43,411 nt of DNA from Acidimicrobiia bacterium. GTDB lineage: Bacteria; Actinomycetota; Acidimicrobiia; Acidimicrobiales; VFJN01. The notes below the pieces were generated by a model. It was not told where the DNA came from. It did no database searches and saw nothing but the letters and a program-made list of their open reading frames with translations. The DNA is taken from NCBI GenBank assembly GCA_050247895.1, contig JBFWTJ010000001.1, forward strand, positions 1 through 43,411, given 5' to 3'. The position numbers and the translations under genes are program-made. The first letter of the stretch is position 1. Each line of letters begins with the position of its first letter. Below, piece after piece: positions 2,945 to 37,125 of this stretch.

Positions 2945-5203
<2,259 letters not shown>

Positions 5204-5316
5204 TCACCTCGGCTCGCCGAGCCGTCTCCCGGCAACGTAAACCCGATCCCCGGACCGGTCCAGGGATCGACCCGGCTCCGCCTCCCGCCGTGGCACCCGC
5301 GGATCGACCGGGGCCG

Positions 5317-19756: not shown

Positions 19757-19808
19757 GCGCCGCTCCTGACCGTCGGGCCCGCGACCGCGGAGGCGCTCCG
19801 GGCCGGCA

Positions 19809-19846
19809 GGTAATTCTATCGGCTGCTCGATCAAACAGCCGGGAAG
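19809..19846 (+). promoter_or_regulatory. AT-rich conserved motif, copy F, in the regulator/giant-operon divergent region
   Basis: GGTAATTCTATCGGCTGCTCGATCAAACAGCCGGGAAG matches about 27 of 38 positions of copy B by hand alignment. It lies about 175 nt upstream of GTG 20022. Confidence 0.45.
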
Positions 19847-19896
19847 CCTGCGGCGGGAACGGCCGCCACGGTCCGCGTCGGGCCGACCGCGCGATC

Positions 19897-19908
19897 GGCA
19901 GATCTGCC
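19897..19908. promoter_or_regulatory. Perfect 12-nt palindrome GGCAGATCTGCC in the leader of the giant operon
   Basis: Read directly. It is followed by a TATGTT hexamer (19922-19927). Candidate operator for the adjacent ArsR-like regulator, or an RNA hairpin. Confidence 0.35.
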
Positions 19909-20021
19909 CCTTCGGCTGCACTATGTTGCCGAGCCGTGCGGACGGGCGGGGCCCAGGATGTGGGTTCGTGGGCGACCGACCGCGAGCGCACGTCCGGTCG
20001 GGCAGGTCCTGAGGGCTGACG

Positions 20022-23000
20022 GTGGCCTACGCCCCGCTCTCCGGCCGGCTGTCGAGCCTGCCCCTCGTCCTCTGCGGGCCTCTGCTCCGCCGCGTGACCA
20101 CCGACGCGGTCACCGTCTTCGTGGCGCTGCGCAAGCCGGCCAGCGTCACCCTCACCGTCTCGGCGGTCACCTCGGCCGGCGGCGCCGGCGCGACCCGTTG
20201 CACCGGCACGGCGCCGACCGTCGGGATCGGCGCCAACCTGCACGTGGTCGCCGTCACCGCCACCGCGCCCGGCGCCATCGTGCCCGGGGCCACCTACGTC
20301 TACGACCTCGCACTGACCCCGCAGGGCGAGTCGACCCGCTCCCTGCTCGACGCCGGCGTGGTGGCCGACACCGGGGCCGCGGCCCGCCAGGCCCTGACCT
20401 ACGAGGTGCCCGGCGCCCCGGCCCTGCCCTCGTTCACCGCCCCGCCGCCCGACCCCCGCGGCCTGCGGATCCTGCACGTCTCGTGCCGCAAGCCCCACGG
20501 CCACGGCACCGACGCCCTGCCCACCGTCGACCGCATGATCCGCGACTCGTTCACCGCGACCGGGCCCGACGCCGCGCCCCGGCCCCACCTGCTCGTCCAC
20601 ACCGGCGACCAGATCTACGCCGACGACGTGGCCGATCACCTGCTGTACGTGCTGATCGACGCGGCCGACGCCCTGCTCGGCTGGACCCCCGGCGAGCAGC
20701 TCCCCCTGCCCGGCGGGGCCGCCGCGCCCCGCACCCTGCGCCCCGGGCTGCGGATCCGGACCGCGCTCGAGGGCGGGCTGACCAGCGGGGCGCCCTTCGG
20801 CCGCAAGCCCCCCGACCAGGTCGACGACGACGTCGTGGCCAAGTGGGGCCAGGAGCCCCGCAGCCACCTGCTCGGCTTCGGCGAATTCTGCGCCATGTAC
20901 CTGCACGCGTGGAGCCCGACCCTGTGGCCCCCGGCCATGCCGACCGAGGCCGAGCTCTACCCGGGCGCCACGCCCGAGCAGCTCGAGGCCCACCGCAAGG
21001 CCGTCTCCGACCAGCGCACCCGGGTCGGCTGGGGCTACGGCCCGTTCGTGGCCGACGTCCGCCGGCTGCTGGCCAACGTGCCCTCGCTGATGCAGTTCGA
21101 CGACCACGAGGTGACCGACGACTGGTTCCTCAACCTCGCCTGGCTCAAGCGCGCCCAGGACCCGGCCACCCCCAAGGGCCGGCTGGGCCGGTCCATCGTG
21201 CGCAACGGGATGGCCGCGTTCGCCGTGTTCCAGGGGTGGGGCAACGTCCCCGAGCGGTTCGTCGCCGCCCCCGGCCCGGTCCCGGTGGCCGGCGCCGAGA
21301 TCCTCCGGCTGCTCAACACCTGGCACGGCGACGGCGGCCGCAGCGACAGCGCCACCGGCAGCAACACCCTCGAGCTGCTCGAGAAGCTGCTCGGGCTGCC
21401 CACCGGCTTCGGCATCGACCGGGCCACGCGCGACGCCAACGCCATCGACTGGCACTTCCACCACACCTGGCCCGGCCACCAGCTCGTGGTGCTCGACACC
21501 CGCACGGTCCGCTCGACCCCGGGCGCCGAGGGCGAGCCACCCGCGCTCATCTCCGCCGAGGACCTCGTCGACCAGTTCGCCCAGGTCCCCGTGCCCGGGG
21601 CCGACGACCTCGTCCTGGTGGTGTCCCCCGCGCCGGTGTTCGGGGCCGAGGCCCACGAGAAGCTGGGCAAGACCCGCCAGCACATGGTCGACCCCGAGCA
21701 CTGGTCGCTCCAGGAGGCGGCCTGGGAGCGCCTGCTGGCCCGCGTCGTGACCCGGCGGCCGGCCGACGCGACCGGCGTGCGCCGGTCGCGGACCGTCATC
21801 CTGTCCGGCGACGTCCACTACGCCTCGACGCTGGCCGTGCACTACAAGGGCCGGCCCTACGAGGCCGACGCCACGACCCGGGTCGAGGCGGCCATCGCCC
21901 AGCTCACGTCGAGCGCGTCGAAGAACCAGGACTCCAAGACCATCGGGATCGCCTACGGAGCCAGCGCGGCCATGCCCGCCGCCCACCGCTACGGCTGGAC
22001 CAACCCGGGCGGCGGGCCGTTCCCGGTGACCACCGCGACCGGCACCGAGACCCGCAACGGCTCGCCCGTGGTGGTCGACGTGCCCAACGGCCCCGGGCCG
22101 CTCGCCGAGTGGGACGTCGACATCCTCCCCCAGCGCGACGTGCGCCTCGGCATCTCGCACCTGCTCAGCCTGCCCCCGGCCGGCGGCGGGCTCGCCGGGG
22201 CCGTCGAGGCCGGCAAGTGGGCCGCCGGCGTGGTCGCGACCGAGCTCAGCGGGCGCCGCATCGTGGGGCGCAACAACGTGGGCGACATCCGCTTCCGGTG
22301 GGAGGCGGGCGACGACAAGAAGGTCATGCACCACCTCTGGTACCGGGCCAAGGACGCCGACCCGCTCGCCGCACCGCACACCCTGCACGTGGTGGACCTC
22401 GCCGTCGGCCTGCCCGCGGCGTCGACGGACCCGACCCTGCGCCGGGGCGACCACGACCGCGACGCCGGCGGCATCGCCCGCTACGACGGGGCCGACCGGG
22501 TCGAGCCGGCCCCGGGCAGCGGGCTCGTCGCCCGGCGCCAGGCCCAGCTGGCCCAGCTCGGCTTCTCGCTCGTCGGCCCGGCCGACGGCCTGTTCGACGC
22601 CGAGATGGAGGAGGCCGTCCGCGAGTTCCAGATCGCGGCCGGCAGCTCCCGGGCCGCCCGCTCGACCAGCGGCGCGCCGAGCGACCCGACGACCCACGAA
22701 CCGGTGGTCATCGGCACGGCCGAGCGCTACGCCGGCGCGATCGACGGCCGGATCGACCAGGCCCTGGCCGGGGTGATCGACGGCTGGGTCGCCCGGGGCT
22801 GGGCCAACCCGGTGTGGGCCCGGGCCCAGCAGGGCGCCACGGTGACCGCCACCACGGTCTGGCGCTTCGACGACCCCGTCCCGGCGGGCAGCGAGGTGTC
22901 GATCCGGGACCTGTCCGACCTGTGGCCCCTGCCCGGCGGCCGGGCCGCGGCCGACTACCACCCGGCGGGGCGCTTCCTGGCCACGGCGGGCGGGCCCGTG

Positions 23001-24092
23001 GCCGTGGCCCCGGACCACACCTGGGCCCAGGCCGAGCTGCTGCCCGCCGTGCTCACCGGCACCACGCCGACGGTGGTCCAGCGCTCGACGTTCAAGGTCG
23101 TCCGGGCGGTGAGCGAGCGGGAGTGCGGCGGCTTCCTCGACAGCGTGGCCACCTCGTCCAACGCGCTGCTGGAGGCCGGCACCTTCCACTGGACCTTCGG
23201 CCTGCCCAACGGCGCCCTGCGCGCCCCCGGCGAGCTGGCCGGCTTCGCCGCCTACCTGCGCCACGCCGACCCGCTGATCTTCGACGCCGTGTTCACCCGG
23301 TTCGGGCTCGTCCCGTCCAAGGCCTGGCGCCAGGTCGACCAGTCCCCCACCGGCCGGGCCCTGCTCACCCCCGAGCGCACCTACCGGGCCTGGTGGAGCC
23401 GGCCCCACGACCCCCTCCAGGAGATCGAGGACGGCGCGGTCGAGTCGGACCGGTTCCGGTCCTGGCACTGGGTCCACCGCATGCAGATGGCGGCCCGCAC
23501 CTTCGGCGACTGGCGCCGGGCCGCCTACGACTTCGGCCGCATCCGGGTGCGCGACCTGCTCTCCACGCCCTGGGGCAAGAAGACCGGCGCCGACGGGGTC
23601 CCCGACATCGCCCTGACCGGCGGCGGGACCCGCGTCGCGACGATCGGCGACGTGGTCACCTCCGAGCGGGGCGTGGCCCTGCTGGTGCGCTGGCACGTCT
23701 TCCGCCCGGCCGACCTCGTGAGCGCCAACGCCGCCGCGTCCTTGCTGCGCCAGACCCTGGCCACCGTGGGCAGGCCGGCCGGCGCCCCTTCGAGCTGGCC
23801 CGACAGCTTCGAGGACCAGTTCGTCGCCGCCCTGGCCGCGGCACCGCCGACGGGCATCAACTCGTTCGACGACGTGCTGCGCTGGCCCCGTTGGCAGGCG
23901 AACAACCCGTCCGGGTTCGCCCTGGACCTCGACGCCCTGCTCGCGGCGGCGCCCGGCGCGCCGACCGGCTACGTCGCGCCGACCGACATCTCGCGCACCG
24001 CCGGCCTGCTGTCGGCCCGGCGGGGCTCGTTCCTGCTCGACGCCGCGGGCCTGCCCCCGGCCCCCGACTACGCCCAGGCAGGCCAGCCGTGA
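20022..24092 (+). CDS. Giant-operon gene 1: PhoD-like metallophosphoesterase + peptidoglycan-binding (PG_binding_1-like) module + ~400-aa uncharacterised C-terminal region
   Basis: 1356 aa. PhoD_N-like strand (GPLLRRVTTDAVTVFVAL). Metallophosphatase motifs are HVSC, GDQIYADD (20604), FDDHEVTDDW (21096) and LSGDVHYAS (21804). PG-binding-like segment QLAQLGFSLVGPADGLFDAEMEEAVREFQ (~22524-22645). RBS GAGGG 6 nt before the GTG. Confidence 0.85.
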   Translation: MAYAPLSGRLSSLPLVLCGPLLRRVTTDAVTVFVALRKPASVTLTVSAVTSAGGAGATRCTGTAPTVGIGANLHVVAVTATAPGAIVPGATYVYDLALTPQGESTRSLLDAGVVADTGAAARQALTYEVPGAPALPSFTAPPPDPRGLRILHVSCRKPHGHGTDALPTVDRMIRDSFTATGPDAAPRPHLLVHTGDQIYADDVADHLLYVLIDAADALLGWTPGEQLPLPGGAAAPRTLRPGLRIRTALEGGLTSGAPFGRKPPDQVDDDVVAKWGQEPRSHLLGFGEFCAMYLHAWSPTLWPPAMPTEAELYPGATPEQLEAHRKAVSDQRTRVGWGYGPFVADVRRLLANVPSLMQFDDHEVTDDWFLNLAWLKRAQDPATPKGRLGRSIVRNGMAAFAVFQGWGNVPERFVAAPGPVPVAGAEILRLLNTWHGDGGRSDSATGSNTLELLEKLLGLPTGFGIDRATRDANAIDWHFHHTWPGHQLVVLDTRTVRSTPGAEGEPPALISAEDLVDQFAQVPVPGADDLVLVVSPAPVFGAEAHEKLGKTRQHMVDPEHWSLQEAAWERLLARVVTRRPADATGVRRSRTVILSGDVHYASTLAVHYKGRPYEADATTRVEAAIAQLTSSASKNQDSKTIGIAYGASAAMPAAHRYGWTNPGGGPFPVTTATGTETRNGSPVVVDVPNGPGPLAEWDVDILPQRDVRLGISHLLSLPPAGGGLAGAVEAGKWAAGVVATELSGRRIVGRNNVGDIRFRWEAGDDKKVMHHLWYRAKDADPLAAPHTLHVVDLAVGLPAASTDPTLRRGDHDRDAGGIARYDGADRVEPAPGSGLVARRQAQLAQLGFSLVGPADGLFDAEMEEAVREFQIAAGSSRAARSTSGAPSDPTTHEPVVIGTAERYAGAIDGRIDQALAGVIDGWVARGWANPVWARAQQGATVTATTVWRFDDPVPAGSEVSIRDLSDLWPLPGGRAAADYHPAGRFLATAGGPVAVAPDHTWAQAELLPAVLTGTTPTVVQRSTFKVVRAVSERECGGFLDSVATSSNALLEAGTFHWTFGLPNGALRAPGELAGFAAYLRHADPLIFDAVFTRFGLVPSKAWRQVDQSPTGRALLTPERTYRAWWSRPHDPLQEIEDGAVESDRFRSWHWVHRMQMAARTFGDWRRAAYDFGRIRVRDLLSTPWGKKTGADGVPDIALTGGGTRVATIGDVVTSERGVALLVRWHVFRPADLVSANAAASLLRQTLATVGRPAGAPSSWPDSFEDQFVAALAAAPPTGINSFDDVLRWPRWQANNPSGFALDLDALLAAAPGAPTGYVAPTDISRTAGLLSARRGSFLLDAAGLPPAPDYAQAGQP

Positions 24093-27000
24093 GTGACGCC
24101 GCGACCAACGTCCTCAAGGCCCTGATCGGCGAGCTGGAGGCCTTCTTCGAACCGCTGACCACGGCCATGCAGAGCCGCCACGGCCGGGCCCGCATGTTCG
24201 CCACCATGGGCTGGGACGGCGGAGTGCTCGTCGACGGGGCCGTCGAGGACGCGGTCGAGGCCCTGCAGCAGATCCTCGAGACGGTCATGGACCTGGCCGA
24301 CGGCGAGCTGTCGGACCTCGGGGTCCTGCTCGACGCCATCGAGGCGATCGGCGACCTGATCACCGCCATCGACACGCTGGGCCGGGCCGCGGCGAACGGC
24401 ACGCTGGCCGCCCTGCTCGACCCGACCGTGCTGGGCGAGCTGGCCGAGGACCTGCTGGCCTACCTGGCCTGCACCTACCTGGCCCGCCGCTACCCGGTGG
24501 CCTACATCGGCGCGGTCCTGCTGACCCTGGTCGACCCGGCCGCCCCCGAGCGCAGCCGCCTGGCGCTGCCCTCGGGCCAGGTGGTCCGCCGCCCGGTCAA
24601 GCGCCAGGCCCTGCGCTTCGACCACATCCCCAAGCTCTTCGAGGACCCGGTCGGCCACCTCAAGGCGTTCCACTTCAACGGGGCGGTCGACGCCGCCGGC
24701 GTCACCTACTTCAGCGACCGGGTGCTCGACGAGATCGCCCAGGTCCTGATGGACCACGGGATCGAGGCCTCCTACGGGTTCCCGACCGAGCTGGCCACGG
24801 CCCTGGGCGTCGACCCCGGCACTCCCTTCGTGGAGCGGCTGCTGAGCCTGCTCTTCCGCTTCCCCGCCACCGACGTGGGCGCCGGGGTCGAGGTCGGCGG
24901 CGAGCTGGCCATCTCGTCGGGGCTGCTGGGCTCCGACGAGGGCGGCCCGGCGCTGGTGCTGCTGCCCTCGGGCGAGATCGAGGTGTCCCGGACCTTCGCC
25001 GACTGGGTCGTCGAGCTGGTCCTGGGCGGCACGACCGGCGGGGTGGCGTTCGGTCCCGGCGGCGTCACCTTCGGGAGCGGCTCGACCCCCTCGGGGCGCA
25101 TCGAGCTGGGCGTGTCCAAGGGCGGGGGGAGCACCGCCCCGGCCTTCGTCATCGGGCCCTCGGACGGCTCCCGGGTCGAGCTGGGCACGGTGCGGGCCCG
25201 GGCCGGGGTGGACCTGGCCGCGTCGGGTGCTGCGTTCGACCTCGAGGTCGGCGTCATGTCGGCCCAGATCGTGGTGGCCGCGGGCGACGGCGACGGCTTC
25301 CTCCAGAAGGTCCTGCCCCCCGACGGGTTCCGGGTCCCCTTCGAGCTCGGCGTCGGGTTCAAGTCGCCCGACCGCCTCTACTTCTTCGGCGGGGCCGGCC
25401 TGGAGATCGAGCTGCCGGTCGACATCGACCTGTTCGGCGTCATCAAGATCCCCGTGATCGGCCTGCGTGCGGTGGTGACCCTGCCCGCCGGCCAGCCGCC
25501 GCGGGTGGAGACCGCGGTGACCGCCGACGTCGAGGTGGCCATCGGGCCCTTCTACGCCACCGTCGAGGGCATGGGGATCTCGGCCGACCTGTCGTTCCCG
25601 CCCGGCGGGGGCAACCTGGGCCCGGTCCAGCTCGACTTCGGCTTCGAGCCGCCCCGGGGCATCGGCATGTCCATCAAGGCCGGACCGGTCGACGGCGGGG
25701 GGTACCTGTTCCTGGACTTCGACGCCGGGGAGTACGCCGGCGTCCTGCAGGTGAAGGTGGGGCCGGTCGGCGTCACCGCCATCGGGCTGCTCAACACGAA
25801 GCTGCCCGACGGCAGCGACGGCTTCTCGCTGATGCTGATCATCTGCGCCGACTTCCCGACCATCCAGCTCGGCTACGGGTTCACCCTCAACGGCGCCGGC
25901 GGGGTGCTCGGCATCAACCGGACCGTCAACGTCCCCGCCCTCCAGGACGGCGTGCGCCGGGGTGCGCTCGACTCGATCCTGTTCCCCAAGGACGCGGTCC
26001 AGAACGCCCGGCGGATCATCTCCGACGTCGGGACGATCTACCCGCCGATGGTGGGCCAGTTCGTGGTCGGCCCGATGGTCAAGATCGGCTGGGGCGTGTT
26101 CGTGACCGCCTCCATCGGCGTGATCATCGAGTTCCCCCGGTTCACGATCTCGCTGCTGGGGCTCATCCAGATCGGCCTGCCCGCGCTCGACGCCCCGGTC
26201 GTGCTGCTGCGCCTGGCCGTGGCCGGGATCGTGGACCCGGGCCGGGGCGAGCTGTCCATCGACGCCACCCTGCACGGCTCGTTCGTCACCGTGTTCACCA
26301 TCAGCGGCGACGTGGCCATGCGCCTGCGGTGGAAGGACGACCCGATGTTCGCCCTGGCCGCGGGTGGCTTCCACCCCCGGTTCGACCCGCCGGCGAGCTT
26401 CCCCCAGCTCGAGCGCCTGACGATCGCGCTGGCCGACAGCGACAACCCGCGGATCCGCCTCGAGTCGTACATGGCGGTGACGCCGGCCACCGTGCAGTTC
26501 GGGGCCCGCCTGGAGGCCTACGCCGCGCTGGACCTGGGCGTGATCGGGTTCTTCGAGGTCGAGGCGGGCATGGGCTTCGACACGCTGATCCGGTTCTCGC
26601 CGTTCTCGTTCGAGGTCGACATCTACGGCTACGCGCACCTCAAGCGCAACCGCGAGGTGCTCTTCGGCGTGGACGTGGCGCTGCGCCTGTCGGGCCCGTC
26701 GCCGTGGCGGGCCAAGGGCGTGGCGACGGTCCACTTCTTCGGCGAGCACAAGGTCGAGTTCGAGGTCACCAGCGGCCAACCGGCCCACGAGCCTCCCCCG
26801 CCGGCGATCGACGTGGCCGGGCTGGTGCGCGCCGCGCTGGGCGACCCGCAGGCCTGGGCGTCCCTGCCGCCCACCGACGCGCCGGTCCGCCTGCGCGAGG
26901 TGCCCGTCGACCCGGGCGCGCCGGCGCCGGCCCGGCTCATGGTCCACCCCGCCGCCACGCTCACCGCCCGCCAGTCGGCCGCCCCGCTCGACCGGGACCT

Positions 27001-27544: not shown

Positions 27545-30357
27545 GCACCACGTTCTCGTCCTGGGTCCGCACCGGGATCGCCGGCACCTCGGGCGGGGCC
27601 ACCCCGCTGCTAGCTCCGGCCACCGACGCGGCCCGGTTGACCACCCGCCTGCGGGCCTCGGTCAACGGCACCCCGGCCGCCGCGGTCGACGTGGCCGTGT
27701 TCGGGCCCGGGGACGTGGCCGGCATCGACCCGGGCCAGATCGTCCGCTCCGACCCCCACCCGGGTGCCGAGGGCTTCGAGACGACCCGCTTCGCCCTGGT
27801 CGAGCTGGCCCGGGCCGACCTGCCCTGGCAGTTCACCCCCCAGGTGGCCAACCCCCGGCTGCGCCCGTGGATCGCGCTGGTCGTGGTCCCCGCGGCGGAG
27901 TGCGAGCTGACCCCCCAGCGGGACCGGTTGCCGGTCCTGACCGTCGACCAGCGCCAGCTCCCGCCCCTCGCGTCGAGCTGGGCCTGGGCCCACGTGCAGG
28001 CCCCTTCGACGTCGGGCGCGCCCGGCCCCGGGGCCCGCAGCCGCCTGGTCTGCCCCCGCCAGCTCCGACCCTTCACCCGCTACCTGGCCGCGGTCGTGCC
28101 GACCTTCGAGGCCGGCCGGCGGACGGGGATGGGCCTGGATCCGGGGGCCGAGCTGGGCGACGCGTGGGGCACCGGCGCGGGCGACGTGGACCTGCCCGTG
28201 TACCACCACTGGTTCTTCGCCACCGGCGAGGCGGGCGACTTCGAGTCCCTGGCCCGGGGGCTGACCGCGCTGCCCCAGGCCCCGGCCGGCCTGGGCGCGG
28301 GGACCCTCGACGTCGGCGCGCCGGGCCCGGCCGGGCTGGCCGCGCCGGGCCGGACCACCCCGCTGCTGGGCCCGGTCGCCGCGCCCGGTGCCGGCTTGGC
28401 ACCGTGGGGGCCGGCCGACCGGACCGCGCTGGCCGCCGAGCTGGTCCCGCCGACCGCGGCCCGGGTCCTGGGCCCGCCGGTCTACGGCGCGCTGGCCTCG
28501 GCGACCGACGTGGCGGCCGCCATCCCCACCACGGGGACGCGGCGCTGGGTGGGCCAGCTCAACCTGCACCCGGCCCAGCGGGCCGCGGCGGGCCTGGGCG
28601 CCACGGTGGTCCGCCGCCGCCAGCACGACTTCGTCCAGGAGGCCTGGGAGCAGGCCGGGCAGGTCCTGGAGGCCAACCGGCTGCTCAACCAGGGCCGGCT
28701 GGGCCGCCGGGTGAGCCTGGGCCTGGAGCGCCGGCACGTGGCGCCGCGGATCCCCGTCGACCTGCTCCAGCTCGCCTCACCGCTGCTGCGCCGGGTCCCC
28801 CACCGCACCCTGCCGGTGACCCTGGCCGCCGACCTGCGCCGGACCATGCTCCCGCCCAACCTGCTCGGCCCGGCGTTCCGCCGCCTGGCCCGGCCGACCG
28901 GCCCGATCGCCCGGCGCGGGCTCGACGCGGTCCGGCGCGAGCGGCTGGTGACCGAGGTCAACGCCGGGACCCTGGTCCCCGACCGGTCCCTCGTGTCCCG
29001 GCCCGGCGGACTGCTCACCATCGGCGGGCTCGTCGACGTGCTGGAGGCGGCCCGGCAGAGCTGGCGCCTGGACCAGCCCGTCGTCTTCACGCCCCGCTCG
29101 CTGGTCGCGCCCGCCCCGGCCCCGGCGGCGCCGCTGACCCGGGGCGGCCGGGCGGTCCGGGCCACCGGCGGGGGCGACGCCGGTGGCGAGGTGAAGGTCT
29201 CGGCCTACGCGATCCGCGAGGGGACCAGCATCCGGGTGACCGACCGGAACCTGGTCGTGGCCGGCTCGCTGACCATCCACCTCGACGACACGATGCAGGT
29301 GCCGCCCAAGGCCATCCTCCAGCTGCTCGATCCCGAGAAGCTCACCGCGGCCCACCTGTCCAAGATGCAGGGGATGGTCCACCTGCCCTTCGACGGCAAG
29401 GTCCTGGAGATCACCGAGTCCGTGCGCGCCGGCCTGCTCGGGCTGATCGGCGCGGCCCCCACGGTGCCGCCCAAGCCGGCCGCCGCCCTCCAGGAGCTGG
29501 CCGACACCGTGCGGCTGGCCGTCTCCCCCGCCGTCGCGGTGCGCGACGTGGTGCTGTCCACCGTGAACCGGCCCCTCGCGGCGGTCGACCCGTTGGAGCC
29601 GGTCATGGTCGCCCCGTCGATCGACGAGGCGCTGTGGGACGACCTGGTCGAGGTGTCGGGCGACCTGTTCCTTCCCGGGGCCGACCTCCTCGAGCGCGAG
29701 CACGCCACGATCCTGGCCACCAACCCCGGCTTCGTGGCCGCCTTCATGGCCGGGGCCAACGAGGAGATGATGCGCGAGCTGCGCTGGCGGGGCTACCCGA
29801 CCGACGGGCGGGGCACGGTCTTCCGGCGGTTCTGGGACCGCTACGACGCCCAGGGCGCACCGCTGCCCGACCTGCGGGCCGACGTCCACGCCTGGCGCAA
29901 CGCCCTGGGCGACGACCTGGCCGAGCCGTCGGGCGAGCTGGTCCTGGTCGTGCGCAGCGAGCTGTTCCGCCGCTACCCGGGGACCCTGGTCACCGCGGTG
30001 CGGGCCCTGCCCGGCACGCCCCGCCGGCCCGACCACGCCAGCGCCCGACCCCCCTCGTTCCACGGCAACCTGCCCCGCGGCGCCGCCTTCTTCGGCTTCC
30101 CCATCCCCCTCGAGGAAGCGGTGGGCGAGCCCGGCAACGCGGCGAAGCCGGGATGGTTCATCGTGTTCCACCAGCCGCCGACCGACCTGGGCTTCGGCCT
30201 CGACGACCCCACGCCCGAGGCCCCGGGCGAGCCGCCGACCTGGCTCGACCCGACCGCCCTGGGGGCCGACGCCGCCGCGGTGGCCGTGGCCACGTCCCAG
30301 CTCCCGATCCGCCTGGCCGTCCACGCCAGCGACCTCGCCGGCCTGGCGGTGCCGTGA
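27541..30357 (+). CDS. Giant-operon gene 3: uncharacterised 938-aa protein
   Basis: GTGA overlap with the gene 2 stop. Protein-like, non-repetitive translation (TFSSWVRTG..., ADLPWQFTP, RPWIALVVVP, SSWAWAHVQ). No domain recognised. Confidence 0.8.
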   Translation: MSTTFSSWVRTGIAGTSGGATPLLAPATDAARLTTRLRASVNGTPAAAVDVAVFGPGDVAGIDPGQIVRSDPHPGAEGFETTRFALVELARADLPWQFTPQVANPRLRPWIALVVVPAAECELTPQRDRLPVLTVDQRQLPPLASSWAWAHVQAPSTSGAPGPGARSRLVCPRQLRPFTRYLAAVVPTFEAGRRTGMGLDPGAELGDAWGTGAGDVDLPVYHHWFFATGEAGDFESLARGLTALPQAPAGLGAGTLDVGAPGPAGLAAPGRTTPLLGPVAAPGAGLAPWGPADRTALAAELVPPTAARVLGPPVYGALASATDVAAAIPTTGTRRWVGQLNLHPAQRAAAGLGATVVRRRQHDFVQEAWEQAGQVLEANRLLNQGRLGRRVSLGLERRHVAPRIPVDLLQLASPLLRRVPHRTLPVTLAADLRRTMLPPNLLGPAFRRLARPTGPIARRGLDAVRRERLVTEVNAGTLVPDRSLVSRPGGLLTIGGLVDVLEAARQSWRLDQPVVFTPRSLVAPAPAPAAPLTRGGRAVRATGGGDAGGEVKVSAYAIREGTSIRVTDRNLVVAGSLTIHLDDTMQVPPKAILQLLDPEKLTAAHLSKMQGMVHLPFDGKVLEITESVRAGLLGLIGAAPTVPPKPAAALQELADTVRLAVSPAVAVRDVVLSTVNRPLAAVDPLEPVMVAPSIDEALWDDLVEVSGDLFLPGADLLEREHATILATNPGFVAAFMAGANEEMMRELRWRGYPTDGRGTVFRRFWDRYDAQGAPLPDLRADVHAWRNALGDDLAEPSGELVLVVRSELFRRYPGTLVTAVRALPGTPRRPDHASARPPSFHGNLPRGAAFFGFPIPLEEAVGEPGNAAKPGWFIVFHQPPTDLGFGLDDPTPEAPGEPPTWLDPTALGADAAAVAVATSQLPIRLAVHASDLAGLAVP

Positions 30358-33300
30358 TGGCCCGCGACCTCACCACCCTGCGCGTCGCCGCCGAGGCCCA
30401 CCTCCGCAAGGTCGAGGCGGCCCGGACCGTGCTGGTCGCCCGCAACGAGGAGCTCGCCGCGGCGGAGACGCCGGCCGAGGTCCGCAAGGCGGCCGCCGCG
30501 GTCTCCGGGGCGGCCAAGACGCTGGTCCAGGTGGTCGACCCGAAGGTCTGGGACGCGGTCATCGCCCTGATGAACCCGGTGGCGGCCCTGTCGGGCATCG
30601 AGGACACCGTCCCCATCGCGTTCCTGCCCGTGCGGTTGGAGACCCGGTTCCGGCGGCGGGGCACCCAGTGGGACCTGCTGGTGCGGATCTACCCGGACGC
30701 GGTCCACCAGGACCAGCACCGTCCCGAGCTCACGCCGTCCGAGCGCGAGGACGGCGAGGCCTACTGGGCCACGTCCGCGGCCGCCGCGGCGGCCCCGGAC
30801 GAGCCGGCGGCCTGGGCCACCCTGGTCCGCGGCCACGGGCCGACCCGTGCGGCCTGGATCCGCCGGGCCACCGAGCCCGGCGCGCCCGACCCGGGATCGG
30901 TGGCGGCCAACACGTTCACCCGCCCGTCCCAGACGATCCTGCTGCCCGACGTGTTCTTCGCCGTGGGCTACCGGCACGGCGTGGAGATCGCCCGGGTCCA
31001 GGGGTCGAGCGTGCGCCAGCCGTTGTTCACCGCGCCCGACCCGGCGGTCCCGGCCGACGACGACGGCCTCGACCCCTCGACCCGCTGGCTGGTCGACTTC
31101 GACGTCGCCGCGGCAGCCGGGATGGCCCTGACCATCCCCCTGGGCCCGGGCGGTGGGACGGGCCTCGACCGGCTGGTGGTCTACGGCGTGAAGGCCTCCT
31201 CGGCGCCGGCCCGGTCCGCCGTGCTCCTGGCCGCCACGCTCGACGCCCACCACTACACCGACGGCCTGGGCCTGGTGCCGGTGGGCACGCCGACCAACAA
31301 CGCCGAGGGGCGCCGGTCGGGCTACCTCGGGGGCGACGACGCCCTGGCCGAGCGCAGCCACCGGGTCGAGGTCGAGCCGAGCCCGGTGGACGGGGGGACG
31401 AGCCCGTCGGGGCTGCTGCTGTCCGACGCGGCCCGGGCCATGATGGCCGACGGCTCCCGGGTGGCCGCGGCCCTGGGGATCGCCCGCTCGCACCTGGCCC
31501 ACGTGGAGAGCACGGCGGCGACCAGCGACCGGGACGCCCAGGCGATGATCGTCGGGCTGTGGCCCTCGGTGGGCGCCTACGCCATCCGCCAGTTCCTGGC
31601 CGACTCGATCGACACCGACCTGGAGGAGGCGATCCGGACCCACGCGGTGCGCTGGGTCCGGGCCCGGGGACCGTTCCCCGCGCTGCGGGTCGGCCGCCAG
31701 CCCTACGGCCTGCTGCCGATCACCTCGTTGAGCCGCCACGTGCCCGCCTCGGGCGACCCCCACGCGGCGACGATCCTGGCCGGGCTGCGGGACCTGGCCC
31801 AGGTGTGGACCACGGCGACCGACCAGGTGCCCCGGGTCGGGGCCTCGTCGGACCCGGCCGAGGCGCTGGCCCAGATCCTGGCCCTGTCCCCGGTGTCGGT
31901 GGGCTACCGGCTCCGGCGGGAGGCCGACTCGCAGATCCTGGAGGTCCTGGGCCAGCTCGCCGACGCGACCCCCGAGGCCCGGGCGACGGTGCAGTCGGCC
32001 CACCAGCAGCTGGCGCTCAACGGCCTGGGCTGGTCGAAGGGCGCGGCGGGCAACGGCCTGCTCCGCCTGATCGGCTTCGACACGCCCGCCCCGCTGGAGC
32101 GCCCGCTGGTCCAGCACGGCGGCGTGTCCGAGACCGACCCGCTCGTCGACAACTACATCGCCTTCATCCGCACCGCGACCGGCGGCGACCTGATGAGCGC
32201 GGCGACCCGGAACCGGCCGCCGCTCCTCTACATCCTGCTGCGGGGCTCGATGCTGTCCCAGATGCTCGACGACGGGCTCAAGCTGGCCGACCTGCCGCCG
32301 CGGCCCGACCTGGCGCTGGACCGGTTCATCCACATGCAGCTGGAGGGCGTGGGGCCGATCGGGACGCTGGCCGAGCTGTTGAAGCGGCCGACGCCGGGCA
32401 CGGGCGGCTTCACCCCGCCGGTCGGCCCGGTGGGCGGGATCGGCCGGGGCGACCTGGCCGTGGGCGACCTGCTGGACCTCGTCCGGGACCGGCTCGGCCG
32501 GGACCCGCTGATCATCAAGGACGGCCCGCTGGCCGGGCCGGGCACGGTGCTGGGCGTCGGGGGGATCGTGGCCTGGCCGCCGCGGGCGGTGGACGGCGGC
32601 GGGACGCTCCCCGGCTTCGCCGACGTGACCGGGCCGGCCGGCGAGCCGGTCTTCGACCTGGACCAGACCCCGGTCGACCCGGGCACGGCCGATGGGGGGC
32701 CCTCGACCACGCCGGCCGGCGTCGTCGAGGGGGTGCCCGACCTCGACGAGCTCGCCGGCATGGGTGGGCTGGCCGGCGTGCTGGAGCTGGGCGAGCTGGC
32801 CGCGGGCGGCCCCGGCGGGCTCGGGGGCCTGGGTGGGCTCGGGGGACCTGGTGGTCCCGGTGGCCCGGGCGGACCGTTCCGGTCGCTGAGCATGCCGGCA
32901 CGCCCGCTGTCGGCGTCCACCGCGGCCCCGGCCGGCGAGGCCGTGCGCCTGGCCTCGATCAGCCTGCCCCCCGGCGCCTGGAACGAGGTCTCCGACGTCC
33001 TGGTGAACAAGCTCCTGGGCGTGATCGACATCGGCGCCGCGCTGGCCCACCTGGAGAAGCTCCCCACCGCCACGCTCGACCGGCTGCTGCGCGAGACCCT
33101 CGACCTGGCCGGCCACCGCCTGGACGCCTGGATCACCTCGCTGGCCACCGAGCGGCTGGCCGAGATGCGCGCCTCGTCGCCCGCCGGGGTCCACCTGGGC
33201 GCCTACGGGCTCGTCCACGACCTGCGCCCGGCCGGGGCCGGTTCCACCGGGGGCTACGTGCACGCGCCGTCGGTGGGCCAGGCGGCCACGGCCGCGATCC

Positions 33301-35327
33301 TGCGCAGCGGCCACCTGGCCCGCGGGGGCGGCGGCGAGCTGGCCGTCGACCTGAGCTCGGCCCGGGTGCGCCGGGCCCTGCGGGTCCTCGACGCGGTGCG
33401 GGCCGGCCAGTCCGAGGGGGCGCTGCTCGGCGTCCTCTACGAGGAGCACCTGCTGGCCAACGGCGCCCCGGCCGCGATCGGCCCGTCCCGCCAGGCCGCA
33501 CCGCTGGCGGGCACGATCGGCGCCGGGACGGTGCCGGGGGGCTGCGACGGGGACCTGCTGCTCCAGGCCGTCGACGACGGCACGACCAGCGCGGCGGCGA
33601 TCGCGGCGGCCTCCGGCGTGCCGGCGAACCAGCGACCGGCGTTGCAGGCCGCGGTGGCCGGGGGCCTGGCCCTGCTGGCCGACACGGCCGACGCCATCGG
33701 CGACCTGCTGCTGGCCGAGTCGGTCCACCAGCTCGCGGCCCGCAACACGGCCCGGGCGACGGCGGCGATGGCCGCGGCGAGCGGCGGGGCGCCACCGGAC
33801 TCCTACGACGTGCTGCGGGTCGCCCCGACGGGCGTGGGCCTGAACCAGCGGGTCGGCGTGCTGCACCGCGGGGCACTGCCCCGCTCGCCGGCGAACACGG
33901 TCCGGGCCCTGGTCGACCCGTTCGTCGACGCCTGGATCGGCGGCCTGCTGACACCCCCGGGCCGGATCGTGCTGACCCTGCACCTGGTCGACCGCACCCG
34001 GGTGTCGGTGAGCGCGGCCGACCTCGGGCTGGGCCCGTCCGACGTGGTGGCCCTGTCCGGCGCGGCGCCGACCGCGGCGGGCGAGGTCGACGTGCCGCTG
34101 CGCCGGCTCCTGGAGGGCGCGGCCCGGGCCCTGGCCGGGACCCGGGAGGTGGACCGGGTGGACGCGGGCCCGGTGGACGTGGCGGCGCGCCTGGGCCGTG
34201 CGGTGGCCGACGCGCTGACCGGGGCCAGGCCGTTCGACCCGGGCGACGTGCCGACCGCGACAGGCGCGGACCCGGCCACCACGGACCGACGGGAGGTCGA
34301 GGACCGCCTGGGCGTGGCCGTCCGGGCCGCCGAGCGGCTCCTGGCCGGGGCGAGCAGGCCCGGCCCGCTGCCCGTGCGGCGGACCCCGGCCCAGCTGCGC
34401 CAGGCGCTGCTCGGGCTGGTCCGGGCCGGGATGGTCACCGCGGTGCCCGAGGCCGCGCCGGGGTCCGACGGCGAGGTGGCCGCGCTGTCCGACCAGCTGG
34501 CCCGGGCCGTGGGCGTGGTCGAGGGCCGGGTCCGTGCCGCGGCGGCCGCGCTGGCCGAGGTGCGGGCCGCGCCGGACGGGCCGGACCTGCTGTCCCGCCT
34601 GCGGTCGGTGGCCGAGAGCCTGGTCGGCGACCGGGTCCTGGTCACCGTGCCGGTGGGCTCGGACGTGCTGGACCAGGCGTTGGACCTGCCCCCGTCGATC
34701 GACGGGGTGACCACGGCCGGAGAGCGGCGGCGCCAGGCCCGCCGGCTGTTGAACGAGGTGGCCGCGGTGCGCACGCCGGTGGCCCACGTGCGCCGGTTGC
34801 GCCAGCTCGTCCAGGCGTCCCGCCGGACCGCGCCGCCGGTGGACCTGGTGCAGCTCTCGGTGGCCCCGGTGGCGGGCGACCCGTGGGCCGGGGTGGGCTC
34901 GTCGGCCCGCCAGGCCGCCGGGGATCCGGCGATCGCCGGCGGCCGCGTGTCGGTCCTGGCCCTGGACGCCGGGTTGGGGGACGTCCCGGGCGGACCGGTC
35001 CGGGGCCTGGTGCTCGACGAGTGGAGCGAGACGGTGCCGAACCCGACGTTGACCACCGCGCTGGCCGTGCACGCCAACCGGCCGAGCAACGAGGCGCCCC
35101 AGACGATCCTGCTCGCCGTCCCGCCCGACCCGACGGCAGGTTGGAGCCAAGCCGAGATCGAGGCGGTGCTGGGCGAGGCGCTGGACCTGGCCGCGCTGCG
35201 CAGCGTGGACCTGCCCGCCCTGGGATCGCTGGGCCAGCTCGTGCCGATGGTCCGGGTCCCCCTGGAGGGCCACTCGTTCAACCGCGACCTGCGCTGGGAG
35301 CACCTTGTGGCCAAGGACGACGAGTGA
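30357..35327 (+). CDS. Giant-operon gene 4: uncharacterised 1656-aa protein with internal Gly/Pro linker
   Basis: ATG 30357 shares one base with the gene 3 stop (TGATG). N-terminal coiled-coil-like segment. Also FLPVRLETRF...LLVRIYPD, LRVGRQPYGLLPI and a GGPGGLGGLGGLGGPGGPGGPGGP tract (32805-32876). No domain recognised. Confidence 0.8.
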   Translation: MARDLTTLRVAAEAHLRKVEAARTVLVARNEELAAAETPAEVRKAAAAVSGAAKTLVQVVDPKVWDAVIALMNPVAALSGIEDTVPIAFLPVRLETRFRRRGTQWDLLVRIYPDAVHQDQHRPELTPSEREDGEAYWATSAAAAAAPDEPAAWATLVRGHGPTRAAWIRRATEPGAPDPGSVAANTFTRPSQTILLPDVFFAVGYRHGVEIARVQGSSVRQPLFTAPDPAVPADDDGLDPSTRWLVDFDVAAAAGMALTIPLGPGGGTGLDRLVVYGVKASSAPARSAVLLAATLDAHHYTDGLGLVPVGTPTNNAEGRRSGYLGGDDALAERSHRVEVEPSPVDGGTSPSGLLLSDAARAMMADGSRVAAALGIARSHLAHVESTAATSDRDAQAMIVGLWPSVGAYAIRQFLADSIDTDLEEAIRTHAVRWVRARGPFPALRVGRQPYGLLPITSLSRHVPASGDPHAATILAGLRDLAQVWTTATDQVPRVGASSDPAEALAQILALSPVSVGYRLRREADSQILEVLGQLADATPEARATVQSAHQQLALNGLGWSKGAAGNGLLRLIGFDTPAPLERPLVQHGGVSETDPLVDNYIAFIRTATGGDLMSAATRNRPPLLYILLRGSMLSQMLDDGLKLADLPPRPDLALDRFIHMQLEGVGPIGTLAELLKRPTPGTGGFTPPVGPVGGIGRGDLAVGDLLDLVRDRLGRDPLIIKDGPLAGPGTVLGVGGIVAWPPRAVDGGGTLPGFADVTGPAGEPVFDLDQTPVDPGTADGGPSTTPAGVVEGVPDLDELAGMGGLAGVLELGELAAGGPGGLGGLGGLGGPGGPGGPGGPFRSLSMPARPLSASTAAPAGEAVRLASISLPPGAWNEVSDVLVNKLLGVIDIGAALAHLEKLPTATLDRLLRETLDLAGHRLDAWITSLATERLAEMRASSPAGVHLGAYGLVHDLRPAGAGSTGGYVHAPSVGQAATAAILRSGHLARGGGGELAVDLSSARVRRALRVLDAVRAGQSEGALLGVLYEEHLLANGAPAAIGPSRQAAPLAGTIGAGTVPGGCDGDLLLQAVDDGTTSAAAIAAASGVPANQRPALQAAVAGGLALLADTADAIGDLLLAESVHQLAARNTARATAAMAAASGGAPPDSYDVLRVAPTGVGLNQRVGVLHRGALPRSPANTVRALVDPFVDAWIGGLLTPPGRIVLTLHLVDRTRVSVSAADLGLGPSDVVALSGAAPTAAGEVDVPLRRLLEGAARALAGTREVDRVDAGPVDVAARLGRAVADALTGARPFDPGDVPTATGADPATTDRREVEDRLGVAVRAAERLLAGASRPGPLPVRRTPAQLRQALLGLVRAGMVTAVPEAAPGSDGEVAALSDQLARAVGVVEGRVRAAAAALAEVRAAPDGPDLLSRLRSVAESLVGDRVLVTVPVGSDVLDQALDLPPSIDGVTTAGERRRQARRLLNEVAAVRTPVAHVRRLRQLVQASRRTAPPVDLVQLSVAPVAGDPWAGVGSSARQAAGDPAIAGGRVSVLALDAGLGDVPGGPVRGLVLDEWSETVPNPTLTTALAVHANRPSNEAPQTILLAVPPDPTAGWSQAEIEAVLGEALDLAALRSVDLPALGSLGQLVPMVRVPLEGHSFNRDLRWEHLVAKDDE

Positions 35328-36958
35328 TCCAGCTCACCTTCACGACGTGGGCCCGGCTCGAGCCGAACGCCAGCGACCCGGACATGAGCCCGGGCCTGGT
35401 GGCCGAGGTGGCCGACCCGCTGTGGTTCCTGGCCCGCCAGTGGCAGCTGGGCGAGCTCCAGGGGGAGGACGCGGCGACCCCGGCCACGGTCCACGTGTCG
35501 GCCGAGGTCGGGGTGCCGAACCGGGCCCGGTTCGGGGGCGGGGGCCCGGTGGCGGCCTACGACCCGACGACGACGCCGCTGGACCTGCTGGCCGAGCGGG
35601 AGCCGGCCCCGGCCGGGGTGCCGGTGGTGCTGGCCGCGGAGGCGTCGCTGATGCTGGCCGAGGAGCTGGGGACGGGGGCGGCGGCGACGGCGGTGCTCGA
35701 CGCCCTGCGGGTCGCGTTCCCGCTGCCGGTCCTGACCCCGGCCGAGACGGCCGAGCTGGCCCCCTCCAGCGCCGAGCTGCTCGTCGCGCTGGACGGGACG
35801 GCCTTCGACGGGGTGGCGGTGGTGCGGGCCCAGCCGGCCGACGTCCCGGCCGCCGCGGCCGGCCCGGCGCTGGACGCGGCGATCGCCGCGGTGGGCCCGT
35901 GGGTGGACCTGCACCTGGCCCCGACCAGCGCCTGGGTGCCCGACCAGCTCGGGGCCACGGTGGAGCTGGGGATCCCGGCCACGGGCGGCCAGGTGGCGCT
36001 GCGGGCCGAACGGCCGGCCGGCGAGCAGCTCGGCTGGTGGAGCTTCGACCGGACGAACGCGGCGCTGGGCGCGGGGACGACGGTCACCGCGCTGGCGACC
36101 CATCCGCTGCCGGCGACGACGGTGCCGATGGCGGGGGCTCCGGCGGCCCGCTACTGGGAGATGGAGGACGCCGCGGTCGACCTGGGCGCGGTGGGGGTGG
36201 CGCCGAGCGAGCTGGCCCGGCTGGTGGTGCTGGAGTACCTGCTCGTCTACGGCAACGACATGGTGGTGGTGCCCCTGGAGGTGCCCTACGGCTGCCGGGT
36301 GGCGGTGACCAAGGTCGAGGTGGTGGACAACTTCGGCGGCCGGACGGTGGTCCCGACGGCCGCGTCGCTGACCGGCGGGCAGTTCCGCATGTGGAGCGTG
36401 ACGGGGGACGACGGGGCGCTGCTGGTCCCCCCGCTGGCGCTGACGACGCTGAACGGCCCGGCGCTGGAGGAGGTGCTGGTGGCCCGGGACGAGCAGGCCA
36501 ACGTGGCCTGGCTGATCGAGTCGCTGGGCACCGACCCGGCCGGCTCGCCCGTGGACCTGCGGGGCCTGCCCGCGCCGGCACCGCCGCCCCCGTCGATCCC
36601 CGATGCCTACGGGACGCCGCGCCCGCCGTGGCGCTGGAAGCTGACCGACGCGGTCCCGCCGACCTGGCACCCGCTGCTGCCGACGGCCGCGACCGACGGC
36701 CGGACCCGGCTGGTGGCCGGCACGGTGGCCGGGGTCCCCGCGGCGCCGCCCCGGTCGCGCCTGCTGGCCGAGCTGCCGGCCCAGGGCCTGCCGCTGGCCA
36801 TCGTCCCGGCCGAGGGCCTGCGCCTGCGCCGCCGGGCCGAGGCCACCCGCTGGATCGACGGCAGCCGCCACGCCTGGATCGCCCGCGACCGCCGCGCCGG
36901 CACCGGCGACGCCGGCAGCGGCATGGTCTTCGACACCCTCACCAAGCCCGACGACTGA
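35324..36958 (+). CDS. Giant-operon gene 5: uncharacterised 544-aa protein
   Basis: GTGA overlap with the gene 4 stop. TFTTWARLE N-terminus and ADPLWFLARQWQLGELQGEDAATP block (35411-35482). No domain recognised. Confidence 0.8.
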   Translation: MIQLTFTTWARLEPNASDPDMSPGLVAEVADPLWFLARQWQLGELQGEDAATPATVHVSAEVGVPNRARFGGGGPVAAYDPTTTPLDLLAEREPAPAGVPVVLAAEASLMLAEELGTGAAATAVLDALRVAFPLPVLTPAETAELAPSSAELLVALDGTAFDGVAVVRAQPADVPAAAAGPALDAAIAAVGPWVDLHLAPTSAWVPDQLGATVELGIPATGGQVALRAERPAGEQLGWWSFDRTNAALGAGTTVTALATHPLPATTVPMAGAPAARYWEMEDAAVDLGAVGVAPSELARLVVLEYLLVYGNDMVVVPLEVPYGCRVAVTKVEVVDNFGGRTVVPTAASLTGGQFRMWSVTGDDGALLVPPLALTTLNGPALEEVLVARDEQANVAWLIESLGTDPAGSPVDLRGLPAPAPPPPSIPDAYGTPRPPWRWKLTDAVPPTWHPLLPTAATDGRTRLVAGTVAGVPAAPPRSRLLAELPAQGLPLAIVPAEGLRLRRRAEATRWIDGSRHAWIARDRRAGTGDAGSGMVFDTLTKPDD

Positions 36959-37125
36959 ACCGGGCGAGGGCCTTCAGCTGTCTCCGCCACCTCTTGCGCC
37001 AGAACGCGGTAGGCGTCCTGTTCGCCAGCCTTGCCAACCTCGACGAGGTGTTGGCACAGTCCGGCGCCGGGAACCCCCCTCCCGACGGAGCCTCGCCTGG
37101 AGGTTCTCCCACCACACCCACCTGG

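Follow-up and report, generated by a model that had tools for sequence, protein, structure and literature searches.

The Tc (ABC) toxins of Photorhabdus and Yersinia (TcA, TcB, TcC) are composed of a few very large proteins that are encoded side by side. They have a conserved chassis, variable receptor-binding domains and a swappable enzymatic payload, and their spread is patchy and horizontal. They carry no classical signal peptides and are released non-classically. The extracellular contractile injection systems (eCIS), such as Afp, PVC and MAC, and the haloarchaeal contractile injection systems (CIS) are self-contained mobile loci that encode variable binding proteins and have variable cargo genes alongside, and are found in Actinomycetota, Bacteroidota, Cyanobacteria, Proteobacteria and haloarchaea. 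The umbrella (Umb) particles of Streptomyces, reportedly described in 2024, are said to be multi-protein particles of Actinomycetota with variable lectins and a coiled-coil element. Their components are UmbB, a trypsin-like UmbA that has a lectin, and UmbC, which combines ALF repeats with a toxin domain at its C-terminus. Here we analysed a stretch of 43,411 nt from an Acidimicrobiia bacterium (assembly GCA_050247895.1, contig JBFWTJ010000001.1, positions 1 to 43,411), hereafter the window, which contains an operon of five large genes (genes 1–5). Our analysis showed that genes 2–5 are a conserved module found in many phyla, and that gene 1 is one of several unrelated enzyme genes which occupy the position upstream of it.

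A conserved four-gene module and its variable first slot

The five genes fill 16,937 nt of the plus strand (20022–36958), with stop and start codons overlapping as GTGA at 24089, 27541 and 35324 and as TGATG at 30355–30359. Recomputed open reading frames (ORFs) agreed with an initial annotation of this DNA in all lengths, coordinates, the span and the junction overlaps (Table 1). The window is 75% G+C and has chance long ORFs in every frame, for example an antisense ORF of 1426 aa at 19416–23696. That genes 1–5 are chance ORFs of this kind was nevertheless ruled out, and they are real genes, because three lines of evidence agree. The G+C content by codon position (about 0.73, 0.54 and 0.99) singles out exactly these five plus-strand frames between 20.0 and 36.9 kb. 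The third-position value (GC3) is 0.979–0.990 in each of the five genes, and the three A/T-ending codons counted by hand in the first 101 codons of gene 1 were found again. The N-termini could be aligned with homologues from genomes of 43–46% G+C, where chance ORFs of such length cannot arise. Finally, an independent assembly from another sequencing run (Logan SRR27751816) gave identical calls of 1151, 938 and 1656 aa. Simple scans revealed no promoter-like site and no plus-strand terminator-like site inside the five-gene block, and nothing was found in the window by Rfam and tRNA scans. In the NCBI annotation of the metagenome-assembled genome (MAG), genes 3 and 5 are each given as 'hypothetical protein'.

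We then asked how far the operon is conserved, using one genome per GTDB species and a pattern scan with the gene-3 alignment, which gave more than 592 confirmed loci; synteny was analysed at 80 loci by tblastn with the proteins of the window. Gene 2 was found directly upstream of gene 3 in 64 of the 67 loci with room for it, and gene 3 was followed by genes 4 and 5, in this order and on its strand, in 59 of 62 loci. The departures from this layout were two circular permutations (L012 and L015), a decayed locus (L020), an inversion (L072), a locus in which gene 5 was undetected (L053) and a gap (L032). In both L012 (Leptolyngbya PCC 7375) and L015 (a Cytophagales MAG) the order is 3-4-5 and then a gene-1 homologue; gene 2 comes next in L012, and L015 ends within the gene-1 homologue. 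Independent gene calls from Bradyrhizobium, Spirillospora, Kocuria, a verrucomicrobial MAG, Salinigranum and Rhizobium showed the same layout, with most junctions overlapping or nearly abutting. The initial annotation had taken the five genes as one unit; the four families of genes 2–5 do keep their order and strand together in other genomes, but gene 1 does not belong to that unit.

The hosts of the module (more than 592 loci) are Actinomycetota, Bacteroidota, Acidobacteriota, Cyanobacteria, Bacillota, Gemmatimonadota, Alpha-, Beta- and Gammaproteobacteria, Nitrospirota, Chloroflexota, Myxococcota, Deferribacterota, Binatia, Eremiobacterota ('Candidatus Lustribacter'), Verrucomicrobiota and Haloarchaea, that is, at least 15 bacterial phyla and the haloarchaea. 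The layout is alike in monoderms, diderms and archaea. This indicates that the module is independent of any one envelope type.

The flanks of the 80 loci are unrelated, the most widespread flank family being present in only 5 of them, which rules out conserved accessory genes (immunity, lysis, chaperone or regulator) beside the module. Among 141 flank ORFs from 50 loci, a small sample, most were housekeeping or metabolic; a handful matched PADLOC models, with no PADLOC family in more than three ORFs, so the setting does not seem to be that of a defence island. Integrase families were absent from the commonest flank Pfam families of these 50 loci, and there was no enrichment of integrases or defence genes. 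The module was also found on Streptomyces, haloarchaeal and Rhizobium megaplasmids, and the Bradyrhizobium copy lies on an island beside an integrase and an excisionase. Because the flanks are unrelated and such megaplasmid and integrase-flanked copies exist, genes 2–5 are a self-contained, horizontally mobile four-gene module.

A phage origin of the module was rejected. There was one match (MT835531.1) among 50,697 phage records and none among 2.9 million IMG/VR contigs, no PHROG matched, and the sole matching record is an unverified contig of 75% G+C. This record (L086, about 30100–40040) is entered in GenBank as 'UNVERIFIED: Bacteriophage sp.', comes from human faeces and is unannotated, with genes 2–5 at one of its ends. 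Its source is probably actinobacterial, the contig having been misclassified as phage.

A homologue of gene 1 was found before gene 2 in 27 of the 80 loci. When the genes directly upstream of the gene-2 homologue were clustered for 45 loci, 16 were PhoD-like (including that of the window), further families had 5, 4, 4, 3 and 2 members, and 11 were singletons. In a sample of 39 such first-slot proteins, Pfam identified eight as PhoD-like, five as phospholipase D (PLD), five as M64-like, two as S8 and two as Nal1-like, the rest being others or without assignment. The families are two-domain phospholipases D, M64-like zincins, subtilases (S8), Nal1-like serine peptidases and DUF2515, with single cases of a GH59 protein with ricin and a glyoxal-oxidase/kelch protein, and several proteins had no Pfam match at all. 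The catalytic motifs of these enzymes are intact: two HxKxxxxD (HKD) motifs were present in each of the PLD proteins (5/5), and one HExxH motif in each of the M64-like proteins (4/4). Some first-slot proteins have wall- or glycan-binding modules (PG_binding_1, LGFP or ricin). No domain common to the enzyme families was detected by hhalign, which rules out a shared adaptor or packaging domain, and the Spirillospora locus has no first-slot gene on that strand. The first slot is therefore a variable position that holds interchangeable unrelated enzymes, not a fixed member of the module. Three loci have two or three tandem first-slot paralogues upstream of the gene-2 homologue (L077, 541–6428; L009, 705–6482; L073, 3373–6615), an arrangement that resembles effector arrays.

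In the window, the enzyme is probably an active, distant PhoD-like metallophosphoesterase, judging from its motifs. As the initial annotation had proposed, a PhoD-like phosphoesterase and a peptidoglycan-binding module were both recognised in gene 1 by Pfam, PhoD (PF09423) with 41 bits against a cutoff of 27 and PG_binding_1 with 31 bits against a cutoff of 23, although the alignment to the PhoD profile covers only about 40 residues. The motifs SCR154, GDQIYAD195, DDHE360 and GDVH596, which we take to be the PhoD metal-ligand motifs, were located in gene 1, and their core residues (S154, C155, R156; G195, D196, Q197, Y199; D360, D361, H362; G596, D597, H599) are invariant in 16 homologues. The sole match of the gene-1 profile to PDB sequences was a weak one to a secreted alkaline phosphatase (E = 0.15). 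Canonical PhoD is exported by Tat. Gene 1, by contrast, has no Tat signal, is fused to PG_binding_1 and to an unmatched domain of 480 aa, and is the first gene of a module. This C-terminal part (about 880–1356, window 22660–24089) had no database match. Of the loci examined, only L029 (Humibacillus) has a gene-1 homologue with this part, which could have a second catalytic function or act on the wall.

Table 1. Features of the five-gene operon and of the region upstream of it in the window
Feature	Position (nt)	Strand	Product	Regions (residues)	Remarks
Gene 1	20022..24092	+	1356 aa, GTG start	PhoD-like metallophosphoesterase core ~1–800; PG_binding_1 839–873; C-terminal ~480 aa without match	
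Gene 2	24089..27544	+	1151 aa, GTG start	helical N-terminal ~1–400; DUF6603 domain 449–1022	core component 1
Gene 3	27541..30357	+	938 aa, GTG start	conserved N-terminal 1–480 and C-terminal 660–938; hypervariable middle ~480–650	core component 2
Gene 4	30357..35327	+	1656 aa, ATG start	N-terminal coiled coil; conserved blocks 100–640 and 890–1656; Gly/Pro-rich insert ~700–880	core component 3
Gene 5	35324..36958	+	544 aa, GTG start	N-terminal motif DPLWxLARQWQxGEFxGEDAGSP, 31–53	core component 4
ArsR/HTH_20-type regulator	19085..19921	-	279 aa		Pfam HTH_20 7e-9, HTH_5 3e-7; divergent from gene 1
Intergenic region	19922..20021				100 nt, ArsR-like gene to gene 1; not in conserved module

The core proteins and the search for known machines

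Analysis of the core proteins revealed that only gene 2 can be named. It matched the Pfam family DUF6603 (PF20248) very strongly and over its full length (E = 2.4e-132, 442 bits, profile positions 5–501 of 502), and NCBI annotators name gene-2 homologues DUF6603 as well. The initial annotation could not name this family; its statement that the operon has almost no assignable function holds. However, Pfam assigns no function to the family, and our literature search found no mention of DUF6603 or PF20248, while searches on descriptive terms gave nothing relevant. Against PDB sequences the gene-2 profile gave helical-bundle noise only, its N-terminus matching designed helical bundles alone. Conservation within gene 2 is higher in the DUF6603 part than in the N-terminal 400 residues.

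We also examined whether any part of the core varies with the enzyme in the first slot. For this, the pairwise identity of each core region was regressed on the average identity of the remaining core proteins and evaluated by label permutation, for seven regions and 27 loci with a classified first-slot enzyme, among which the PhoD class was dominant. Residues 1–400 of gene 2 were the sole region more alike between loci of the same enzyme class (residual +0.029, p = 0.0015). No such co-variation was found in the DUF6603 part or in gene 3 at these loci, and the trends in genes 4 and 5 were weak and non-significant. The result fits a contact between the gene-2 N-terminus and the first-slot enzyme, as far as sequence co-variation can indicate one.

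Genes 3–5 had no match in Pfam, NCBIfam, PADLOC or PHROGs and none in PDB by sequence, where the family profiles of genes 3 and 4 gave coiled-coil or helical-bundle noise only. At least 363 homologues of gene 3 were found, none with a family name; those of genes 4 and 5 are likewise numerous and unnamed. In relatives of gene 3, the middle region contains tachylectin, PKD or FG-GAP inserts. The AlphaFold2 (AF2) model of gene 3 (predicted local distance difference test, pLDDT, 77.7; predicted template modelling score, pTM, 0.68) has low confidence in this middle region only, and Foldseek matched it to nothing in PDB or BFVD at E ≤ 0.001.

Gene 4 has 918 homologues, and no consistent Pfam family was found across 26 of them. 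Its relatives contain FG-GAP, Big_6 or haloarchaeal BGTF surface domains (the last in Salinigranum), and their coiled coils vary in length. The low-complexity Gly/Pro-rich insert of gene 4 (GGLGGLGGLGGPGGPGGPGGP..., window 32455–32995) is lineage-specific and present in fewer than 20% of homologues; a blip of the frame plot at 32761–32820 coincides with it. In Nitrospira copies (L042, at 4709–5518, and likewise L051, L066, L071 and L080) an extra gene for a Gln/Ala-rich coiled-coil protein of 269 aa lies between genes 3 and 4, and the Nitrospira gene 4 is extended at its C-terminus and interrupted by a long coiled-coil insert. The name 'TM1812 family CRISPR-associated protein', given by NCBI to one gene-4 homologue (P0247, from an Acidobacteriota MAG), appears spurious, as no match was found in NCBIfam release 20.

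The gene-5 family is the largest, with 5,891 representatives (clusters of 50% identity) at E ≤ 1e-3, of which 2,675 reach E ≤ 1e-30. Its N-terminal motif is the most conserved block of the protein (0.65). In the AF2 model (pLDDT 80.2, pTM 0.76), which had no Foldseek match in PDB, residues 1–48 fall below 50 and are the sole long disordered part. Because its best-conserved segment is disordered in the monomer model, the motif can be likened to a docking peptide, and on the model it would be expected to fold on a partner. One gene-5 homologue has a lamin-tail domain by its annotator's name. Taken together, the variable regions of genes 3, 4 and 5 in relatives contain tachylectin, PKD, FG-GAP/VCBS, Big_6, TIG, collagen and haloarchaeal BGTF domains. 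No paralogy of genes 3, 4 and 5 was found by hhalign; a weak helical similarity of about 100 residues was seen between gene 5 (102–196) and gene 4 (1019–1113), with an hhalign probability of 63%. On plasmid p_3 of Rhizobium lusitanum (L088, 11896–19784), gene 3 is split into 357 and 731 aa and gene 4 into 946 and 597 aa, with the parts overlapping, and these split points could mark domain boundaries. The proteins had initially been described as beta-rich; we found them to be mixed alpha/beta rather than simply beta-rich.

Neither a transmembrane segment nor a signal peptide was predicted in genes 1–5, and none was found in the firmicute and haloarchaeal homologues or in the first-slot proteins of two Bacteroidota. 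The first-slot proteins checked and found to have no signal peptide were gene 1 of the window, those of L021, L077 and L079, and that of Salinigranum. Genes 2–5 contain no Walker A, HExxH or YD (YxYDxxG) motif, so that our motif and topology scans agree with the initial annotation on the lack of a P-loop, transmembrane helix, signal peptide and YD repeat in these four genes. No ATPase family of the AAA+/ClpV type was found by Pfam in genes 1–5.

In the initial annotation the operon was judged unlike a Tc toxin, an eCIS, a type VI or type VII secretion system (T6SS/T7SS) or an adhesin locus, and our searches bear this out: those of Pfam, NCBIfam, PHROGs, PADLOC and PDB sequences were all negative for such machines, as was Foldseek for genes 3 and 5. 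In particular, the TcA-type VRP1, pore-forming and receptor-binding families had no Pfam match in genes 1–5 or in 26 gene-4 homologues and no PDB sequence match. RHS, SpvB and TcdB had no Pfam match in the same proteins, and the models of genes 3 and 5 matched no cocoon structure. Sheath, tube, spike (VgrG/gp27-gp5) and baseplate (gp25, gp6/Baseplate_J) proteins had no Pfam or PHROG match in genes 1–5. A Tc toxin, eCIS/T6SS, RHS or adhesin locus was thus rejected, for lack of model matches in genes 1–5 and of fold matches for genes 3 and 5; genes 2–5 match no characterised machine by profile, with DUF6603 in gene 2 as the only family, and the AF2 models of genes 3 and 5 match none by structure. 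A known defence system was likewise rejected, as genes 1–5 had no match among the 5,027 models of PADLOC-DB 2.0 and the flanks sampled at 50 loci are unlike defence islands.

With the Tc toxins, the module shares a few very large adjacent proteins, a conserved chassis with variable binding domains and a swappable enzyme, patchy horizontal spread and the lack of classical signal peptides. However, it has no VRP1, SpvB, TcdB or RHS/YD signatures, its payload is a separate full-length upstream gene and not a C-terminal hypervariable region as in the Tc toxins, it has four core proteins (about 1150, 940, 1650 and 545 aa), and it is also found in archaea and in many phyla beyond the Tc range. The eCIS loci are similar to it in being self-contained and mobile, in their adjacent cargo genes and variable binding proteins, and in phyletic spread, but genes for a sheath, tube, spike, baseplate, tape measure or AAA+ ATPase are absent from the locus and its vicinity, and the gene-3 and gene-5 models did not match structures of this kind. 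Like the Umb particles, the module has lectin or propeller inserts (in relatives) and coiled coils of variable length in genes 3 and 4. It is set apart from them, by description, in gene content and sizes, in having no polymorphic C-terminal toxin domain on the core, in its enzyme being a separate gene, and in a spread far wider than Actinomycetota. The module thus looks like an undescribed kind of multiprotein system, as it failed every test of membership in a known system that we ran, with folds compared for genes 3 and 5.

Possible functions of the module

The fixed order and strand of genes 2–5, their overlapping or nearly abutting stop and start codons and their presence in many phyla suggest that they encode a complex of several subunits. 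The core is coupled and has no catalytic, nucleotide triphosphatase (NTPase), membrane or export signature; it is accompanied by a swappable, intact hydrolase and by variable binding inserts, and occurs under all envelope types. These features together are explained most simply by a conserved chassis that bears an enzyme and attaches to a target. The reading that we favour, if tentatively, is that genes 2–5 form a released, target-binding protein particle with the first-slot enzyme as cargo, analogous in its logic to the Tc toxins, the eCIS and the Umb particles and not detectably homologous to the first two. The four proteins would be the subunits of one large soluble assembly, the conserved chassis, and the enzyme its functional payload, here a PhoD-like phosphodiesterase with a peptidoglycan-binding module. 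The enzyme would dock on the helical N-terminal part of the DUF6603 protein, and the hypervariable regions of genes 3, 4 and 5, which bear lectin, Ig or propeller domains, would bind the target surface. Its release from the producer would involve neither Sec nor Tat but, for example, lysis or a route of another kind, and the particle would act on other cells or on extracellular polymers. Complex formation, the enzyme as cargo, the extracellular location and the identity of the target are what we infer here. The further claim that genes 2–5 are a new class of nanomachine, unrelated in sequence and fold to Tc toxins, CIS and secretion systems, which takes an interchangeable hydrolase to a recognised surface and has spread by horizontal gene transfer (HGT) across at least 15 bacterial phyla and haloarchaea, we regard as slightly less likely.

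Several points weigh against a released particle. No signal peptide, Tat motif, transmembrane segment or lysis or secretion gene was found in the components or conserved nearby, and export is for this reason purely inferred. No immunity gene is evident beside the enzymes, as an antibacterial toxin would need, and folded enzymes of 400–1650 aa would be an awkward cargo for translocation. PG_binding_1 is present in only 2 of the 39 first-slot proteins. The co-variation result is limited by its 27 loci, the dominance of one class and the seven regions tested, and genes 2 and 4 may be related by a remote fold to a known machine, the fold search having covered genes 3 and 5. Of the two suggestions made initially, an envelope-associated system agrees with the peptidoglycan-binding module of gene 1 and the surface-type inserts of relatives, but in view of the rarity of that module it is not established. 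A delivered effector complex is the option that the new evidence favours, although it still goes beyond what was observed.

The same absence of export signals throughout would agree with an intracellular conflict or anti-phage system, in which the core is a cytoplasmic sensor scaffold, the variable propeller, lectin and Ig inserts recognise invader molecules and the first-slot enzyme, be it a PLD-type nuclease or lipase, a metallophosphoesterase or a protease, is the effector of abortive infection. Swappable hydrolytic effectors are typical of defence systems, the hypervariable regions agree with an arms race, the distribution is patchy, as HGT would make it, one copy is flanked by an integrase, and the next upstream gene but one in the window (17588–19051) matches the PADLOC candidate PDC-S27 at 5e-21. 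However, none of the five proteins matched the PADLOC models, and the flanks of 50 loci are mostly housekeeping or metabolic genes, with few PADLOC matches and no common integrase family. A core of about 4,300 aa without NTPase, nuclease or signalling domain, and inserts and modules typical of extracytoplasmic proteins (the haloarchaeal surface domain, collagen, TIG, peptidoglycan-binding, LGFP and ricin), also speak against it, and we consider this explanation unlikely.

A cellulosome-like scaffold for surface or extracellular display, which would hold a digestive exoenzyme (phosphatase, phospholipase, protease or glycosidase) on the wall of the producer or on particles of substrate for nutrient scavenging and attack no cells, would account for the lack of immunity genes. 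The first-slot classes are typical of scavenging exoenzymes, some of which have PG_binding_1, LGFP or ricin, and lectin and Ig-like inserts are present in the core proteins. But no secretion signal or anchor (sortase, PGF-CTERM or lipobox) was seen, the same core occurs under entirely different envelopes, some loci have no first-slot enzyme, and about 4,300 aa of strictly conserved, non-repetitive protein far exceeds what display needs, which makes such a scaffold improbable. Least probable of the three is that the module is very distantly related, after divergence beyond recognition, to a known machine for injection or toxin delivery (Tc A/B/C or a phage-tail-like baseplate), or that it has a structural role in an uncharacterised mobile element. 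It does resemble Tc and eCIS loci in the sizes of its genes, in having a slot for a payload, in its variable domains for binding and in its patchy spread, and fold comparison was limited to genes 3 and 5 while genes 2 and 4 amount to 2,807 aa, but no sheath, tube, baseplate, spike, VRP1, SpvB, TcdB or RHS family matched by Pfam or PHROG, there are no small conserved neighbours of tube or sheath size, the models had no structural match (gene 3 in PDB and BFVD, gene 5 in PDB), and neither the 50,697 phage records nor the 2.9 million IMG/VR contigs held a bona fide phage copy. The probability left over by these explanations and the released particle belongs to something else.

The module amounts to about 4,300 aa in four families, of which only DUF6603 has a Pfam model, and may be among the larger pieces of conserved prokaryotic 'dark matter'. 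If it is a particle that delivers cargo or presents an enzyme, it would give microbes a new way of interacting with one another or with eukaryotes. Its naturally modular build, with exchangeable enzyme and binding domains, would then also be of interest to biotechnology. Should it prove to be an immune complex inside the cell, it would be a defence system that has no NTPase, which would be just as unexpected. In either case, an anonymous operon has become a defined and testable system with clear component boundaries, and with residues 1–400 of gene 2 as a candidate cargo-binding region.

Upstream region and neighbouring genes in the window

The initial annotation had noted a divergent ArsR-like regulator and a shared AT-rich motif upstream of the operon. 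The regulator gene is real by its Pfam matches, but it had no tblastn match at any of the 80 related loci; it is a local neighbour, possibly a local regulator, and not part of the system. In the intergenic region we saw no clear AT-rich motif, only a perfect inverted repeat of 7 nt (CCGACCG-N12-CGGTCGG, 19976–20001), 20 nt upstream of the gene 1 start, which may be a candidate local operator or a chance match in G+C-rich DNA. A simple scan of 19922–20021 detected no sigma-70-like promoter. A Shine-Dalgarno-like site, GAGGG, lies ahead of the GTG start of gene 1.

The neighbours on both sides of the operon are ordinary chromosomal genes, with three ABC transporter genes downstream. The gene at 17588–19051 (plus strand, 488 aa), the second gene upstream of the operon and without a counterpart at other loci, encodes an archaeal-type ATPase_2 domain, a winged helix and a weak DUF234-like tail; this is the protein with the PDC-S27 match (E = 5e-21). 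An ORF of 464 aa at 7449–8843 (plus strand) has a coding-type GC3 of 0.96 and no Pfam family. The region between 2948 and 17528 encodes a KatG catalase-peroxidase, tandem DUF2249, an FeS-assembly domain protein, a 1-Cys peroxiredoxin, a sulfite/nitrite reductase, a CLC channel with CBS domains, a protoglobin, MarR, a truncated globin and a CopD-like protein, and it looks like an oxidative or nitrosative stress island.

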